Origin: Nitrosopumilaceae archaeon
GTDB lineage: Archaea > Thermoproteota > Nitrososphaeria > Nitrososphaerales > Nitrosopumilaceae
DNA: 64,000 bases
Assembly (NCBI GenBank): GCA_052389415.1
Contig: JBQTHX010000055.1
Location: 1-64,000, forward strand
Direction of reading: 5' to 3'
A program made the position numbers and the translations under genes. This document shows, piece by piece, positions 54-19,314 of the stretch (the stretch's first letter is position 1; each line of letters starts with the position of its first letter). The notes below the pieces were generated by a model. It worked only from the letters and a program-made list of their open reading frames with translations, ran no database searches and was not told the origin of the DNA.

Positions 54-911
54 TTGGTGGATAGAAAAAATTTCGAAATAAATCCGCTATTAAAAGACTA
101 TAAGCAATATCTTGAAAAGATAAATGACGCATTAAAACGTGAACTTGATCTCTATTCTGCATCAGAATTTTTGGAACCTTTACAATACGCCCTCGATGGA
201 GGAAAACGGATACGACCACTCATCTTGTTACTTTCGGCAGAAAGTGTGGGAAATTGTGATGAAAATGCATATGCTGCTGCTTGTGCAGTCGAATTACTTC
301 ACACAGAATCAGTCATTCATGATGACATTATTGATAATGAGACATTAAGGAGGAGAAAGGATCCATTCCATATCAAATATGGATATAACACAAGCATCCT
401 CACAGGAGACTTTGTCCTTGGGTTAATCCTAAACATAGCATCAAGAATTAACAATCCACGAATAGCTAGTGAACTTGCAACAACTGCAATGATGATGAGT
501 GATGGCGAGATGATAGAAACGAGATTAGAATCAAGCGAGGACGTTACATTTGATGACTATATCAAAGTGATGGAATACAAAACAGCCACCGCTTTTGAAG
601 CGGCGTCAAAAATTGGAGCCATACTTGGAGGTGGAACAGAAGATCAGATATTGGCATTAGCAGAATATGGAAAAAATGTAGGAATTGCATATCAAATTCA
701 TGATGATTTGCAAGACTGGAATAATGAAGACAAATTATTCAACGTATTAATAAAGAAAAGCTCTGATCCGCGAGATGTTTTCAATCACATGGATTATTTG
801 CTAAAAGATTATTCTTTAAAATCAAAAACTGGCCTGAGAAAAATAAAGGAAGGACAGGCCAAATCTCATTTAGAGAATCTCTTAGATTTAACTATGTTTA
901 AGGTACAGTAG
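54..911 (+). CDS. Polyprenyl diphosphate synthase (trans-prenyltransferase)
   Basis: GGKRIRP, HDDIID...RRR, KTA and YQIHDD motifs; C-terminal region after the second Asp motif is short. Confidence 0.92.
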   Translation: MVDRKNFEINPLLKDYKQYLEKINDALKRELDLYSASEFLEPLQYALDGGKRIRPLILLLSAESVGNCDENAYAAACAVELLHTESVIHDDIIDNETLRRRKDPFHIKYGYNTSILTGDFVLGLILNIASRINNPRIASELATTAMMMSDGEMIETRLESSEDVTFDDYIKVMEYKTATAFEAASKIGAILGGGTEDQILALAEYGKNVGIAYQIHDDLQDWNNEDKLFNVLIKKSSDPRDVFNHMDYLLKDYSLKSKTGLRKIKEGQAKSHLENLLDLTMFKVQ

Positions 912-2388
912 AAATCGTTGTTATGCTTGGCACTGCAGTTTGCGTGAATTGAATAATTGGATCTGGATAGACACCTATTGCTACCATAAAGATAATTGAA
1001 AATATCATAACACCTATTATTGATTTTGGTTCTTTTACTCTCTTATCTGATTCGCCTTCTTCAAAATACATCTTTCTAATAATCCAACCATAGTATGCTA
1101 GTGAAAGTGCACTATTTAGTACTCCAGATATGGCAAGATATGGAGCCCATGAGACAATTGAACCTGCATCGATAGCAGAACCAAATAACATTAGTTTACT
1201 CCAAAATCCATTCAAGGGGGGAACACCAGCTAGTGCAAGAAGTGAAACGACTAATCCAATTGATGTTATCGGCATTCTTTTTCCAAGGCCACGTATTTTA
1301 TCCAGATGTGAAACAGCTAGAGTTGTGATTATTCCAGCCGCGGCAATAAAGGCTGCACCTTTCATAACTGAGTGATTTAGTATATGGAAAAGTGATGATT
1401 GGATTCCTATTTGTGAAAAGGGTGCAATGCTCAAACCTATCAGAATGTATCCTGCTTGTGCTATGCTTGAGTATGCTAGCATCCTGGTGAGGTTCTTTTG
1501 CATAATTGCTGCAATGTTACCTATTGTCATTGTCATTATGGCAATAATTCCAAGCGCAAATGTCCATTCCAAATTAAGTGCGACTGTTCCCATAACAATA
1601 ACACGCAACGCAGCAGCAAATCCAGCTTTCTTTGTTCCCGCAGCAAGAAGTGCAGATATTGTTGTCGGTGATCCCTCGTATGTATCTGGCAACCACATGT
1701 GAAACGGTACTAGTCCCATCTTGAATCCAAATCCTGCAATGAACATTGCAACTGATAGTAGTGCAAGAGGCATCATATCGGATTCAAGCTGAGAGAATCC
1801 GGAAATTACTTCGGCAATGTTTGTTGAACCTGTAAGACCGTATGCAATGGAGATACCATAAATTATTATGGCAGACGATAAAGCACCAAACAAAAAGTAT
1901 TTGAGAGCAGCTTCATTTGAAGTTGGATCCTTTTTCATAAATCCTGCAAGAACGTATGTTGGAATGCTCATGAGTTCCCAAGCAACAAATAACATTACCA
2001 AGTCTGTGGAATATGCAATAAGCACCATTCCAACTGACGCAAGTAAGATCAGAGAGTAGTATACAGCTGGATGTGATTTTCCTCTCATGTAATTAAACGA
2101 GCCAACTGTTGTCATGATTGATACTATAAGCATAGCAATTGCAAAAAACGCCCCAAACATGTCATCGACTAAAACATTTTCTGAAAATATTGCTGCGGGA
2201 ATTACCTTATTCATTATTATTTGATATACAACAAAACCTATTGCAGAAATTAATGCACCAAATGTTATTGCACCATAAAATGAAGAAGACCCTTTGTCCT
2301 TTCGTATAACGCTAATTACTGGAAGAATTACACCAATAGTTCCCAGTATTATAGTTAGAATGATTGGTGTTGAAGTAAAGTCTATCAT
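898..2388 (-). CDS. nuoN: NADH-quinone oxidoreductase subunit N
   Basis: Antiporter-like subunit (EAALKYF, FKMGLVPFHMWLPDTYEG); last gene of the nuo operon. Confidence 0.95.
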   Translation of the reverse strand: MIDFTSTPIILTIILGTIGVILPVISVIRKDKGSSSFYGAITFGALISAIGFVVYQIIMNKVIPAAIFSENVLVDDMFGAFFAIAMLIVSIMTTVGSFNYMRGKSHPAVYYSLILLASVGMVLIAYSTDLVMLFVAWELMSIPTYVLAGFMKKDPTSNEAALKYFLFGALSSAIIIYGISIAYGLTGSTNIAEVISGFSQLESDMMPLALLSVAMFIAGFGFKMGLVPFHMWLPDTYEGSPTTISALLAAGTKKAGFAAALRVIVMGTVALNLEWTFALGIIAIMTMTIGNIAAIMQKNLTRMLAYSSIAQAGYILIGLSIAPFSQIGIQSSLFHILNHSVMKGAAFIAAAGIITTLAVSHLDKIRGLGKRMPITSIGLVVSLLALAGVPPLNGFWSKLMLFGSAIDAGSIVSWAPYLAISGVLNSALSLAYYGWIIRKMYFEEGESDKRVKEPKSIIGVMIFSIIFMVAIGVYPDPIIQFTQTAVPSITTISTVP

Positions 2389-15826: not shown

Positions 15827-16144
15827 TTAAATTTTGAGATTAAGAATAGGAAAATTTTTACTGACAGCTTTTTGATAGATTGTGAATGGATCATCCAAAT
15901 TACCGCATTTTTTGCATATACACAGTTGTGACACTCTTGCTGGATCACAATCATCCCTAAATTCACATTTAGAACAACCGGCAGATCCTCCACAGACAAG
16001 ACATCTAAGATCTACCACTTCTGCGCATGTAAGATGTTTTACTCCTATTCCCTTGGACCAAAATCCTATTTCGTTTATTTCAATTTTCTTTTTACATACT
16101 ACACATGTACCTGAAAATTTTAATGGTATTTTCTGCCAACTCAT
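15827..16144 (-). CDS. Multi-zinc-finger hypothetical protein
   Basis: 11 Cys plus His; ATGA overlap with the rfcL stop. Confidence 0.8.
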   Translation of the reverse strand: MSWQKIPLKFSGTCVVCKKKIEINEIGFWSKGIGVKHLTCAEVVDLRCLVCGGSAGCSKCEFRDDCDPARVSQLCICKKCGNLDDPFTIYQKAVSKNFPILNLKI

Positions 16145-17307
16145 TTTAATGCAGATATCTCCTTTTGCAGAATTTCATCATAAGTCTTATCAAGATTCAA
16201 GTCAAGAGTTTTGTTTTTCATACAAAATAAAAGATATGGAAAAAAGATTGTAGCAAAAGTGGATGTTGATACATGCGACTTTTTTGCGAGTATTGAGGTT
16301 ATACTCTTTATTGCTCTTCCATCCCATCTTATCCTGTTAAGAATTGGCCATGATAGATTAAACTTTGAATATCGTACAGCTGTGCCTCCATTGTATAAAC
16401 CAAGCAACACAGAATCCAGATATCGTAATAGTCTCCACTCCTGAGTTTTCATTATTTTTCCATAAATCAAATCTGCTTCAGAAATCACTTGAAGCATTCT
16501 TTGTTGATCATCTTTTGACAAATCACTTGTTATTATGCTAGCGTAAAAGGCCTGAATTTTTTCTCGCGGATCTATTCTTAACGAATAAAGAATAGCTCTT
16601 GCTTCATCGATAGATTTGGCCTTGAAGAAGGCGTTTATTGATTCCTCCACATCTACTAGTTGAAATGATTTTTCAGTTTGTGGTTCAAATCCAGTAACAA
16701 GAGATTGTGCAGAATTTATCATTGATCTAATGTCTCCTTTTGACGTTACTACTAGTCGAAGAAGAATCCCTGGACTTAGAGACGTTCCTTCTTTTTTTAG
16801 AATTGATTCTAAATACAATCTCATTAACCTTGGAGGTATAGGTTTAAGCAGAATTGTTTTTGTTGCTTTTTTTATGCTTTTCATTTTATCGGATTTGTCA
16901 GAATTTGCTGCAAGAACTATTGGTACCGTCGGTTCTTTAAGAATATCAAGAAGTGCTTCTACACCGCCAAAGTCAGATTTTCCATGAATACCATCTACCT
17001 CATCTACAAAAATCATGGGTTTCCCAAGAAGATTTGAATTTCCAAGTACTGGAGTAAGTAATTCTTGAATTCTTTGTTTGTTCCGAATGTCACTTGCATT
17101 AACTCCAATCATATCATATCCAAATTGTTTCGCGCAGAGAGTTGCAAGTGTAGTTTTTCCAGTGCCAGGCGGTCCCACTAATAAAATTGGTTTTATTCCT
17201 TTTATCCACTTGCCAAACCATTCCACAATCGAAACCTTTGCATCTTCATTTCCGATTAGTTCAAGAAAATTTTTTGGTTTATATTTTTCCGACCACATAT
17301 TAATCAC
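16141..17307 (-). CDS. rfcL: Replication factor C large subunit
   Basis: WSEKYKP, GPPGTGKT, NASD and DEVD motifs. Confidence 0.93.
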   Translation of the reverse strand: MINMWSEKYKPKNFLELIGNEDAKVSIVEWFGKWIKGIKPILLVGPPGTGKTTLATLCAKQFGYDMIGVNASDIRNKQRIQELLTPVLGNSNLLGKPMIFVDEVDGIHGKSDFGGVEALLDILKEPTVPIVLAANSDKSDKMKSIKKATKTILLKPIPPRLMRLYLESILKKEGTSLSPGILLRLVVTSKGDIRSMINSAQSLVTGFEPQTEKSFQLVDVEESINAFFKAKSIDEARAILYSLRIDPREKIQAFYASIITSDLSKDDQQRMLQVISEADLIYGKIMKTQEWRLLRYLDSVLLGLYNGGTAVRYSKFNLSWPILNRIRWDGRAIKSITSILAKKSHVSTSTFATIFFPYLLFCMKNKTLDLNLDKTYDEILQKEISALK

Positions 17308-18422
17308 TTTGGCAGCTTAGCAGCAAATTCTGACCAAAGATTTTCTTTTTGGAGTTGATTGAACCAGAAGAGATTGTAATGTTCAACTGTGAGAAATAAG
17401 AATTCCAGAAAGTTTTTGTGTGAAAAGTTTTCTGGCAATAATTCAAGTGCAAGCTTTGCTTCATTGAGATATAGATTGCTTTTCGCTATTGTAAGCTCAA
17501 AGCCTTTTTTTATATCACCAGTCAGAAGACTGTAGTAAAGTGGCCAAGATGGAATTTTGATGAATTTATATTTGATAGAATCTTCAATCTCATTTCCACA
17601 TCCAACTGATTCGGCTGCTTTTGCCATGCCAAGATGAAATATCTCTCCGAGTGGTGTTCTGTTCAAGGCCATGTTTCTTCCTGCAGTACCCATAACTGCT
17701 CTGTATTTTTTATAACATTGCATCATTTCTTCTTCAGATATGTTAGTAGGTTTTGTCTTTAATTTGAAATCAAGATATTGACCAATTCTCGCATCTTTGA
17801 ATCCATGTTCAAATGTTTCAAGAACTTGGTTGCCCCCCTTTGCTATTTTGGTTCTTGCTAGATTTAGCAAATATGGATTCATGAGTTTATAGTCATTCAG
17901 ATATTCTAAATCTTCATCTTTGTCCATGATTCTGTCCATTGGTTCACTCAAATCTATTGCTATGATATGGCCATCTATCACATTAGTTCTCAATTCCGAA
18001 TCTTGTTTATCACCAAAGTATTCTGAAGATGCATCATATAATGCACTAAATACAGGTAATGTCATCTTAACAAAATTTGAGTTTAAGATTCTTGAAACCC
18101 TATCCTTTAGTATATCATGAATTTCAAGCCTAGTTTTTACTGTGGTTATTTGCTGTCGATCTAACATTATTTCACTAGAGCCAATTTCTTGTGCAAATTT
18201 TTCTTGTGTTGTAATGGGTGATGTGTCAGATTTAATTTCTTTTAATAAATCACTGGTGAATCGGTTTACAAAGTTTGAAAATTCTTCTTCTGATTCTTTT
18301 TTGTATTTGTCGAATTGCCTATAACCCTTGCTTTTGAATAGAGCCTGCTTTACGATTTCCTTACCAGGTTTTGTGCCCAAAAGTGCATCTTTGCTAAAGA
18401 CTGATTCATCTTTACTACTCAC
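17304..18422 (-). CDS. Hypothetical protein, probable degenerate class-I isoprenoid synthase fold
   Basis: 372-aa ORF; DRIMD, GQYLD and GNEIED spaced like prenyltransferase regions (alignment by eye). Confidence 0.6.
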   Translation of the reverse strand: MSSKDESVFSKDALLGTKPGKEIVKQALFKSKGYRQFDKYKKESEEEFSNFVNRFTSDLLKEIKSDTSPITTQEKFAQEIGSSEIMLDRQQITTVKTRLEIHDILKDRVSRILNSNFVKMTLPVFSALYDASSEYFGDKQDSELRTNVIDGHIIAIDLSEPMDRIMDKDEDLEYLNDYKLMNPYLLNLARTKIAKGGNQVLETFEHGFKDARIGQYLDFKLKTKPTNISEEEMMQCYKKYRAVMGTAGRNMALNRTPLGEIFHLGMAKAAESVGCGNEIEDSIKYKFIKIPSWPLYYSLLTGDIKKGFELTIAKSNLYLNEAKLALELLPENFSHKNFLEFLFLTVEHYNLFWFNQLQKENLWSEFAAKLPK

Positions 18423-18507: not shown

Positions 18508-19314
18508 ATGGAAGTTATTGACGTTTTGCTGGAAGCATCTAAACGAGTCTATGACAATGTGAAACATCTTGCGGGCACAAAAGAGTCTGGAGGAGACTAT
18601 GGTCTTGGAGCAGGGGGAGACATTTCAAGAAAAATAGACATCGTTGCAGAAAAGACAGTTCTTGATTATCTAAAAGAAATAAATTTTGATTGCATAGTGC
18701 TTGGCGAAGAATGTGGTAAAATTGAGCTTTCAAAAAACCCACAGGGCTTCATAATAATGGATGCTGTAGATGGTTCCACTAATGCTGTAAGAGGGTTACC
18801 GTTTTTTTGTTGTTCGCTTGCATTTGCCAGAAACAATAAACTTAGTTCTGTTACAGATGGAGTAGTAAGAGATCTTTCAAGAGGGGATGCATATCACGCA
18901 ACTAAAGGAAAGGGTGCATTTCTAAATGGAGAAAAAATTTCCGTATGTGATAATAAAAATCAAATTTATTTTGTTTTAGGTCTTGACATATCTGGGATTT
19001 CACCTAAAGTACTTCAGGCACTATCACCAATAATTGCATCCTCAAACCATATCAGACACTTTGGTGCAAACGCATTAGAATTTGGAATGTTGGCTAGAGG
19101 CCTTATTGATGTGTTTGTTGATTTGCGAGATAAAATAAGAGTTACTGACATCGCCGCTGGTCTTTTGATTGCGTTGGAAGCTGGAGGAATGGTTGTCGAT
19201 AAGAATGGAACGCCTCTTGATTCTGATCTAGGTTATGATAACAAGCTTTCATTTATTGCATCTTCAAATAAAAAAACTCTAGATGACATAATAAACAGAA
19301 TACAACATATTTAG
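18508..19314 (+). CDS. suhB: Inositol monophosphatase / fructose-1,6-bisphosphatase
   Basis: GEE, DAVDGSTN and DIAAG motifs. Confidence 0.9.
   Translation: MEVIDVLLEASKRVYDNVKHLAGTKESGGDYGLGAGGDISRKIDIVAEKTVLDYLKEINFDCIVLGEECGKIELSKNPQGFIIMDAVDGSTNAVRGLPFFCCSLAFARNNKLSSVTDGVVRDLSRGDAYHATKGKGAFLNGEKISVCDNKNQIYFVLGLDISGISPKVLQALSPIIASSNHIRHFGANALEFGMLARGLIDVFVDLRDKIRVTDIAAGLLIALEAGGMVVDKNGTPLDSDLGYDNKLSFIASSNKKTLDDIINRIQHI

Follow-up and report, generated by a model that had tools for sequence, protein, structure and literature searches.

A distinct, lineage-specific family within the trans-isoprenyl diphosphate synthase superfamily in ammonia-oxidizing archaea, with a probably non-elongating chemistry

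What might a conserved protein of ammonia-oxidizing archaea (AOA) do if it resembles a prenyl diphosphate synthase in which catalytic residues have been altered? The question is raised by a gene at positions 17304..18422 of a 64,000-nucleotide stretch of a Nitrosopumilaceae archaeon genome (contig JBQTHX010000055.1, positions 1 to 64,000, hereafter the window). An original prediction, made from the letters of the DNA, had described the product as a degenerate class I prenyltransferase that serves either as a non-catalytic chain-length subunit or as a neofunctionalized isoprenoid enzyme. Our analysis indicates that the target protein represents a distinct, lineage-specific family within the trans-isoprenyl diphosphate synthase (IPPS) superfamily, and that its chemistry, as judged from conserved residues, is probably not chain elongation. 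The gene is

17304..18422, minus strand: target gene, 372 amino acids, GTG start; divergent, AOA-specific protein of the trans-IPPS fold

We began with the fold. An AlphaFold2 model based on 26 orthologues had a mean pLDDT of 85.6 and a pTM of 0.87; confidence was lowest at residues 161-170 (pLDDT 55), which correspond to the first Asp-rich motif. When aligned by VIA-align, the model matched rice solanesyl diphosphate synthase over 275 residues with a Z score of 22.6 and a root-mean-square deviation (rmsd) of 2.9 Å. All 50 entries shown were trans-prenyl diphosphate synthases with Z of at least 18.9. Foldseek returned eight matches in the PDB at E ≤ 0.001, and the 33 rows shown were prenyl diphosphate synthases with the exception of one, tolypothrichol synthase. 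A wide structure search that is independent of Foldseek and covered 48,161 representatives placed IPPS-type prenyltransferases at ranks 1-40 (Z 22.4-12.8), with UbiA proteins at Z 12.6-11.4. Compared with the top IPPS score of 22.4, class I terpene synthases, the cyclases of this fold class, reached only Z 11.1-10.3. Squalene and phytoene synthases were absent from the 50 entries shown by the wide search and from the Pfam families listed for 18 family members, and human squalene synthase gave a Z score of 12.3 to the model of a distant relative.

Sequence comparison required deeper profiles. The structural alignments of the target with IPPS contain only 9-16% identical residues. The window also encodes a canonical enzyme, against which the original prediction had compared the target by eye:

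54..911, plus strand: short-type polyprenyl diphosphate synthase, 285 amino acids (PF00348, E 5.5e-50)

BLASTP of the target against this product gave a best segment of 31 residues that was not collinear (E 0.027), and the pairwise likeness was not above chance. We then compared three profiles of the target family, a shallow one (A1), one of 8 sequences (A4), and one of 18 sequences (A6). In hmmsearch against the PDB, A1 found a single chain, a geranyltranstransferase, at E 0.51, and A4 found 1wy0, a geranylgeranyl diphosphate (GGPP) synthase, at E 2.5e-5. With A6, four chains in all were retrieved at E ≤ 1, every one a trans-IPPS (1wy0, 2.7e-5; 3ipi, 4.3e-5; 2ftz, 4.7e-4; 4wk5, 2.6e-3), and the best alignment covers both Asp-rich motifs. 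An early hhalign run against 6 canonical sequences gave probabilities of at most 5%; A6 against 31 canonical Thermoproteota IPPS gave 94.7% (P 6.2e-8) in local mode and 97.0% (P 1.9e-10, 269 columns) in global mode. The controls yielded P values of 0.085 and 0.44 for the reversed template and, at best, 0.13 for 10 column-shuffled templates. Sequence homology to IPPS becomes significant when the profile includes distant relatives.

Taken together, the structural match (Z 22.6), the profile match (E 2.7e-5), and the hhalign result (P 1.9e-10) bear out the class I, all-alpha isoprenoid synthase fold named in the original prediction. That prediction had proposed comparing a structural model with this fold and would have been abandoned for want of a match; the comparison was run, a clear match was found, and this part of the prediction stands. 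We consider it almost certain that the target product belongs to the head-to-tail, trans-IPPS superfamily of class I isoprenoid synthases, as a founding-type member of a small and highly divergent family.

This fold has been picked up in part by automatic annotation. In Pfam and NCBIfam, no model matched the target product at its cut-off, and PF00348 (gathering cut-off 27 bits) gave no match to it at E ≤ 1. Across the family, PF00348 appears below threshold in 2 of 18 members (best E 0.0035) and is the sole Pfam family that matches more than one of them. The listed relatives carry source names no more specific than "hypothetical protein" or "protein of unknown function," and one Atlas cluster of the family is auto-named "Class 1 isoprenoid biosynthesis enzyme." The sole Pfam row for the target, a sub-threshold DLP_helical match (E 0.0074), was set aside as chance.

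Which parts of the active site have been kept? In canonical IPPS, the Mg2+ ions and the allylic substrate's diphosphate are bound by the acidic motifs, GQxxD, and a Lys residue, and the region I sequence GGKRxRP holds the diphosphate of isopentenyl diphosphate (IPP). The following elements were located in the target:

17910..17936, minus strand: first Asp-rich motif, residues 163-171, DRIMDKDED (hhalign and hmmsearch alignments)
17769..17783, minus strand: GQYLD, residues 214-218, equivalent to canonical GQxxD (profile alignments)
17706..17708, minus strand: K239, the Lys of the canonical "KT" diphosphate-binding motif (profile alignments)
17580..17594, minus strand: second Asp-rich motif, residues 277-281, NEIED, equivalent to canonical DDxxD (deep-profile alignments to 1wy0 and 3ipi)

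Conservation at these sites was assessed in an alignment of 18 sequences from three subfamilies, 18-64% identical to the target. D163 and D167, which match the two outer Asp residues of the canonical DDxxD, are present in 18/18 sequences, whereas the second Asp, replaced by R164 in the target, is Arg, Ser, or Cys in all 18. The RRG of canonical enzymes corresponds to L172-E173-Y174, and the RR position, Leu-Glu in AOA, reads [KR]-H in the most distant subfamily. Q215 occurs in 18/18 sequences, and position 218 is Asp in 17 and Glu in 1. K239 is also found in 18/18, and the Thr of KT is Tyr in the target and Tyr, Ile, or Val across the family. The columns of the second motif read [N/D][E/D]xx[D/E] in 18/18. 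Its register differed between profiles, as the shallow profile A1 instead put D281 at the first Asp; the N277-E278-x-x-D281 register is supported because relatives outside AOA carry a plain DDxxD or DDxxE in those columns. Judged by eye, N277-E278-x-x-D281-S282 is unlike the NSE/DTE metal triad of cyclases, (N/D)Dxx(S/T)xxxE.

The IPP-holding region looks different. GGKRxRP aligns with N116-F-V-K119-M-T-L, and K119 is not conserved, being Arg, Ile, Ser, Tyr, or Thr in other members; the 18-sequence alignment contains no conserved basic replacement for the IPP-holding residues. Only seven of its columns are invariant (D163, D167, Q215, K239, G265, Y318, and L329), and D218, G207, Y237, P291, S292, and the [DN][DE]xx[DE] motif are nearly so. 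Set against the sequence marks of a canonical trans-IPPS, the target has GQxxD and the Lys of KT and lacks DDxx(xx)D with RRG, the second DDxxD, and GGKRxRP.

These alignments also clarified the earlier motif assignments. All of the strings that had been quoted are found in the product: MDRIMDKDED (residues 162-171), GQYLD (214-218), ISEEEMMQCYKKYRA (228-242), AKAAESVGCGNEIEDSI (267-283), KIPSWPLYYSL (289-299), and YLNEAKLALELLP (318-330). Profile alignments reproduced the proposed register of the first motif (DRxxD for DDxxD), the loss of RR, and the registers of GQxxD and K239. The second motif is indeed present, but the equation of D281-S282 with DD was off by four residues relative to N277-E278-x-x-D281, and the likeness of KIPSW to K-T-P is only tentative in the alignment. 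The word "degenerate" fits the basic residues for IPP binding, which are lost; it does not fit the acidic residues, Q215/D218, and K239, which are the most conserved positions down to 18-20% identity. Because the residues for the allylic diphosphate and Mg2+ form the core of the family while those for IPP are gone, the active site reads as remodeled under selection and not as decayed. A putative Mg2+/diphosphate site has probably been retained.

The same pattern bears on whether the target could still elongate prenyl chains, using other residues for IPP and supplying AOA with a third pool of prenyl diphosphate, of a particular length. Both acidic motifs are kept, and the closest structures are all elongating synthases, as this explanation would have it. 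However, the canonical IPP-holding basic residues are all absent and no conserved residue replaces them (K119 varies, and RR is Leu-Glu or [KR]-H), and the genome already has two canonical synthases. We regard such an elongating enzyme as quite unlikely and retain the reading of a protein that would handle prenyl diphosphates by a different chemistry.

The gene is evidently real and is strongly constrained, as its dN/dS (the ratio of nonsynonymous to synonymous substitution rates) against a same-genus orthologue is 0.075, compared with 0.113 for the adjoining gene:

16141..17307, minus strand: AAA+ gene resembling the large subunit of replication factor C (RFC-L), directly downstream of the target (Pfam AAA, RFC1 lid, and Rad17 matches)

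The target was better conserved than RFC-L in every comparison made. Against a genome of family f3, for example, it is 53% identical, with 34% for RFC-L and 68% for the acetyl/propionyl-CoA carboxyltransferase of the same genome pair. The GTG start is correct: relatives begin with the same N terminus (MSSKDES or VSSKDES), and the ATG that precedes it by two bases is in another frame and meets a stop at once. The computed isoelectric point (6.2) and a hydropathy profile free of hydrophobic segments describe a soluble product.

We next asked where the family occurs. A search of 5.8 billion clustered proteins gave 2269 relatives, the 120 listed being at least 71% identical; the named sources among them are Nitrosopumilaceae, Nitrosotalea, and Thaumarchaeota metagenome-assembled genomes (MAGs). 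A profile search of 1.84 billion 50%-identity representatives gave 118 proteins, mostly fragments, seven of them at least 340 amino acids long. Among proteins of 672-2000 amino acids, no fusion containing the family was found, which is weak evidence. Within the class, 314 of 401 genomes encode the target family: 222/223 in family f1, 10/10 in f2, 77/78 in f3, 4/4 in f5, and 0/85 in the other 16 families. Together, f1, f2, f3, and f5 come to 313/315. In the same genomes, archaeal amoA (PF12942) was detected in 214/223, 10/10, 74/78, 4/4, and 0/85, respectively. At the family level, the target gene is therefore found exactly where amoA is, and it was detected more consistently. These tallies include five unpublished genomes that carry both genes (G132, G231, G327, G283, and G365); without them, the target counts are essentially unaltered, at 218/219 in f1 and 76/77 in f3. 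Genomes of 0.8-0.9 Mb (genus g20) have also kept the gene, in 3/3 cases. In a phylum-wide sample, it was present in 43/43 genomes of f1 and 0/257 other Thermoproteota (E ≤ 1e-5).

The target is a single-copy gene. Paralogues in some genomes were considered and rejected, as the second matches were split or interrupted genes (G193 and G355) or spurious weak matches. In the two former genomes, which are both single-contig and of the same family, the orthologue is interrupted by a split match or internal stops (G193:C1:1023205-1024313 and G355:C1:65792-66905), reflecting either a pseudogene or an assembly error.

Outside AOA, matches were obtained in 4 of 201 Aenigmarchaeota genomes: one close to P0131 (an Aenigmarchaeota protein), two with a distant form of 394-397 amino acids, and one weak. 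The distant form has 58 relatives, none of them named, from Aenigmarchaeota and one Bathyarchaeia MAG. In a maximum-likelihood tree, AOA sequences form a clade with support of 99/96, and P0130 and P0131+P0134 do not fall within it. A second clade (97/96) holds the distant form, and a long branch leads to the canonical IPPS; the midpoint root serves for drawing only. The placement implies that the non-AOA copies are not recent transfers out of crown AOA. The distribution shows lineage specificity and may reflect one gain at the AOA stem. One AOA sequence, P0135 from a Nitrosocaldaceae MAG, has an exceptionally long branch (1.66), an odd composition, and insertions relative to other AOA orthologues; a different f2 genome (L031) has a normal copy.

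How does the target relate to the ordinary prenyl synthases of its own genome? Two canonical IPPS (PF00348 loci) are present; the long type is encoded on contig C45, and the short type, at 54-911, adjoins the nuo operon. The last nuo gene converges on the latter:

898-2388, minus strand: last nuo gene, 496-amino acid membrane protein, overlapping the 54-911 gene by 14 nt

The 54-911 product is possibly the quinone side-chain synthase. It matches only positions 4-195 of the 251-position Pfam model, and a match ending near position 195 was also seen in a dozen second matches across 41 Thermoproteota genomes. In the long-type synthases L001 (G000 contig C45), L033, L050, and L055, the second motif reads DDxxG, for example DDLIG or DDILG. 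The genome further encodes geranylgeranylglyceryl phosphate (GGGP) synthase (PcrB/GGGPS, 174.5 bits), glycerol-1-phosphate (G1P) dehydrogenase, and three UbiA-family genes, so that the textbook path to archaeol is complete without the target. A replacement of GGGP synthase by the target in AOA was rejected, given the canonical PcrB/GGGPS, G1P dehydrogenase, and three UbiA genes.

With two catalytic synthases at hand, the target could instead be an inactive subunit of the same fold that sets the chain length, stability, or localization of one of them (54-911 or C45). Non-catalytic partners of this kind are well known, as in HepS/HepT, HexA/HexB, the plant geranyl diphosphate synthase (GPPS) small subunit, the GGPP synthase (GGPPS)-recruiting protein (GRP), and PDSS2/Dlp1. 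The target has the fold of the catalytic subunits and has lost RRG, KRxR, and the second Asp of the first motif; the wide structure search lists the GPPS small subunit (3qkc_A, Z 16.7), OsGGPPS1/GRP (5xn6_C, Z 17.1), and the Bacillus subtilis heptaprenyl heterodimer (9kp1_A, Z 13.8), and, with PF00348 set aside, the closest Atlas clusters that bear a name are those of heptaprenyl diphosphate synthase component 1 (0.85, no more than a lead). On the other hand, conservation in the family is highest at the acidic motifs, Q215/D218, and K239, whereas the inactive partners known to us are without Asp-rich motifs. The HepS family PF07307 matches 0/18 members at E ≤ 1. Nor does the target adjoin a canonical synthase gene, one being 17 kb away and the other on another contig (in G004 and G020, the short-type gene likewise lies 17-19 kb from the target). 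Canonical synthases occur in all 41 Thermoproteota genomes sampled, whereas the target family was found in 0 of 257 non-AOA genomes; every sampled non-AOA member of the phylum thus has canonical synthases and no target. A subunit role is therefore unlikely in our judgment, and of the two functional guesses in the original prediction, the non-catalytic chain-length subunit comes out the weaker, whereas the neofunctionalized isoprenoid enzyme fits the conservation pattern better.

The relatives in Aenigmarchaeota place the family beside lipid genes. In the MAG G436, P0131 is encoded head-to-head with a gene resembling G1P dehydrogenase (170 bits to NF002022), beyond which lie two genes of the GGGPS family. 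In G479 and G521, only one or two genes separate the distant form from G1P dehydrogenase (364 and 367 bits), and a sugar-phosphate nucleotidyltransferase is encoded in the interval. A model of this form (pLDDT 91.1) shows the IPPS fold as well (Z 25.8). RFC genes are not adjacent to the relatives outside AOA, whereas lipid genes are. HMG-CoA reductase is encoded in all three genomes; G479 and G521 each have one PF00348 gene as well as UbiA genes.

G436 is relevant to both of the explanations above. No PF00348 and no UbiA gene was detected in this MAG, which is weak evidence, as it measures 0.6 Mb and is of uncertain completeness. P0131 is the only IPPS-fold gene found there and lies beside GGGPS-family genes, and the MAG encodes HMG-CoA reductase; since a GGPP source is needed, this would agree with an elongating enzyme, although the absence of PF00348 counts for little in so small a MAG. 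With the same reservation, a relative in a genome where no catalytic partner is detectable speaks against an inactive subunit.

Several observations on these MAGs stand apart. No PcrB/GGGPS was found at E ≤ 0.001 in G479 (L071) or G521 (L072), again weak evidence from small MAGs, and the distant IPPS-fold form could stand in for a missing lipid step there. A 291-amino acid open reading frame (ORF) at L072:239-1114 (plus strand) abuts the distant relative and faintly matches the cis-prenyltransferase UppS, well short of the cut-off (E 9e-4); in L071, an ORF of comparable length lies nearby. Metagenome scans for a wider gene context of P0134 and P0130 found nothing.

In AOA, the gene neighborhood is of another kind. 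Two further genes flank the pair formed by the target and RFC-L:

15827..16144, minus strand: small Cys-rich, zinc ribbon-like protein, 105 amino acids, third gene of the cluster (ORF, 4-nt overlap with RFC-L)
18508-19314, plus strand: inositol monophosphatase (IMPase)/fructose bisphosphatase-family gene, divergent from the target across an 85-bp A+T-rich spacer

The GTG start of RFC-L overlaps the TGA of the target by 4 nt; an alternative ATG lies 5 nt past the stop. We examined 25 loci, consisting of the 20 best-scoring f1 loci (the target itself included) and five that span f1, f2, f3, and f5. RFC-L follows directly downstream on the same strand in 25/25. The gap is at most 5 nt in 21 loci and measures 12 nt in L029, 33 nt in L030, 58 nt in L031, and 560 nt in L028. 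Co-transcription of the target with RFC-L is implied because there is no room for a promoter. No Pfam family was found for the 105-amino acid protein, and a homologue of it can be aligned after RFC-L in four other diverse loci (L029-L032), with 30-50% identity. The upstream side varies: f1 has an IMPase-family gene there, f2 a HAD hydrolase, f3 ribosomal S12/S7, and f5 an aldehyde dehydrogenase; the IMPase-family neighbor also occurs in G020 and is absent from f2, f3, and f5.

This arrangement raises the possibility that an IPPS-fold scaffold now works in DNA replication or the cell cycle alongside RFC-L and the Cys-rich protein, its acidic patches binding protein or metal. The order of target, RFC-L, and Cys-rich gene, conserved across all four amoA-bearing families, and the frequency of 4-nt overlaps or gaps of at most 5 nt are in agreement with such a role. 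Yet overlapping genes can remain together for mechanical reasons alone, the non-AOA relatives adjoin lipid genes and not RFC genes, and the residues under conservation coincide exactly with the prenyl diphosphate site; we know of no precedent for an IPPS fold in replication. A replication function thus seems very unlikely, and we return to the handling of prenyl diphosphates as the preferred reading.

What, then, would the protein do? The retention of the allylic/Mg2+ residues, the loss of the IPP residues, the strong constraint, and the lipid gene context of the relatives suggest prenyl diphosphate binding without elongation. The target would bind a prenyl diphosphate via Mg2+, the simplest candidates being GGPP and shorter allylic diphosphates. 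Rather than elongate it, the protein would transfer the prenyl group to an acceptor other than IPP, ionize or hydrolyze the diphosphate, or hand the substrate over to a lipid pathway. It would serve an AOA-specific branch of isoprenoid lipid or quinone metabolism, a placement we infer because the canonical ether-lipid core pathway is complete without it. A role in isoprenoid lipid metabolism is, in our estimate, reasonably probable, and a non-elongating chemistry would have slightly better than even chances; the combined proposal, in which a neofunctionalized protein of isoprenoid lipid metabolism binds prenyl diphosphates or acts on them without elongation, may be put at about even.

A number of points weigh against this proposal. 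Throughout the family, Arg, Ser, or Cys takes the place of the second Asp in the first motif, and the second motif starts with Asn in AOA; mutagenesis literature indicates that such changes of Asp lower catalysis in canonical enzymes. Model confidence is also lowest where the first motif lies (pLDDT 55), and the orientation of the conserved residues toward a cavity is putative. The functional statements all derive from residue conservation and gene context. The sole context found across AOA is RFC-L, which is silent on lipids, and the lipid context comes from three incomplete DPANN MAGs, two of them close kin, amounting to about two independent observations. Co-distribution with amoA gives no grounds for tying the target to ammonia oxidation or to another particular AOA trait. 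Finally, a language-model search that excluded PF00348 pointed weakly, as no more than a lead (0.85), to component 1 of heptaprenyl synthase, which is non-catalytic.

A more specific version of the proposal would make the target the enzyme of a lipid step unique to AOA, for example part of the route to the cyclohexane ring of crenarchaeol, or possibly to some other isoprenoid restricted to AOA. AOA isoprenoid lipids (crenarchaeol and other glycerol dialkyl glycerol tetraethers) underlie palaeotemperature proxies in wide use, and their biosynthesis is partly unexplained. An isoprenoid-fold, apparently ligand-binding protein that occurs in exactly the four amoA-bearing families has the distribution such an enzyme might show. 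In contrast, the ionization of an allylic diphosphate gives no obvious mid-chain cyclohexane ring, and distant relatives occur in Aenigmarchaeota. Crenarchaeol production has been demonstrated in AOA alone (10.1101/2024.07.09.602736; PMC9385802). The route to its cyclohexyl ring is called "elusive" (10.1101/2024.07.09.602736), and the ring-forming enzyme is described as "not identified" and expected to be a radical S-adenosylmethionine (SAM) enzyme (PMC9385802). Since class I chemistry does not obviously form that ring and a radical SAM enzyme is expected, we give this version of the proposal only a very slight chance.

AOA are among the most abundant microbes of oceans and soils. Their IPPS-fold protein, with an allylic site kept and the IPP site discarded, is a concrete candidate for a reaction new to archaeal lipid metabolism, in which a prenyl group would be transferred or otherwise handled. 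If the crenarchaeol assignment were true, the target gene would be a direct genetic marker for the producers of the TEX86/crenarchaeol biomarker. If the target were only a regulatory subunit, it would, to our knowledge, be the first heteromeric trans-prenyl diphosphate synthase described in archaea. A search of full-text literature found no description of the family, which may figure among the conserved hypotheticals tabulated in supplements to papers on the AOA core genome.

Comparison with known systems places the target between three groups of proteins. The canonical trans-IPPS (PF00348; Pyrococcus horikoshii 1wy0, Methanosarcina mazei 3ipi, and rice 9jr6/9jqs) share its fold over the whole chain (Z 20-22.6, rmsd of about 3 Å, 250-276 residues) and the collinear order of first Asp-rich motif, GQxxD, Lys of KT, and second Asp-rich motif. 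The target differs from them in having D-R-x-x-D and N-E-x-x-D, in being without GGKRxR and RRG, and in a shortened stretch after the second motif, where an 11-residue gap falls in the region matching GKxxGxDxxxGK. It also has about 50 extra residues on the N-terminal side of the first motif, and its family is limited to AOA and a few DPANN genomes.

The non-catalytic subunits (GPPS small subunit 3qkc, OsGRP 5xn6, and HepS 9kp1/PF07307) have a similar fold (Z 13.8-17.1) and have likewise lost some catalytic residues, and the language-model likeness to HepS (0.85) is weak. In contrast to these proteins, the target family keeps both acidic motifs and the diphosphate Lys, is matched by PF07307 in 0/18 members, and is unlinked to a catalytic subunit gene.

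The third group consists of MoeN5 (5b00/5b02) and Ord1 (9v4g), IPPS-fold entries titled prenyltransferase and not diphosphate synthase, whose Z scores are 16.4 and 17.3, respectively, to the target model and 21.1 and 20.8 to that of an Aenigmarchaeota relative. MoeN5 uses an acceptor other than IPP. No sequence relationship was detected between these enzymes and the target, yet the logic would be the one proposed here by analogy, namely an allylic diphosphate site that is kept and an acceptor that is changed. Whereas MoeN5 and Ord1 belong to bacterial or fungal natural-product pathways, the target is a core archaeal gene.

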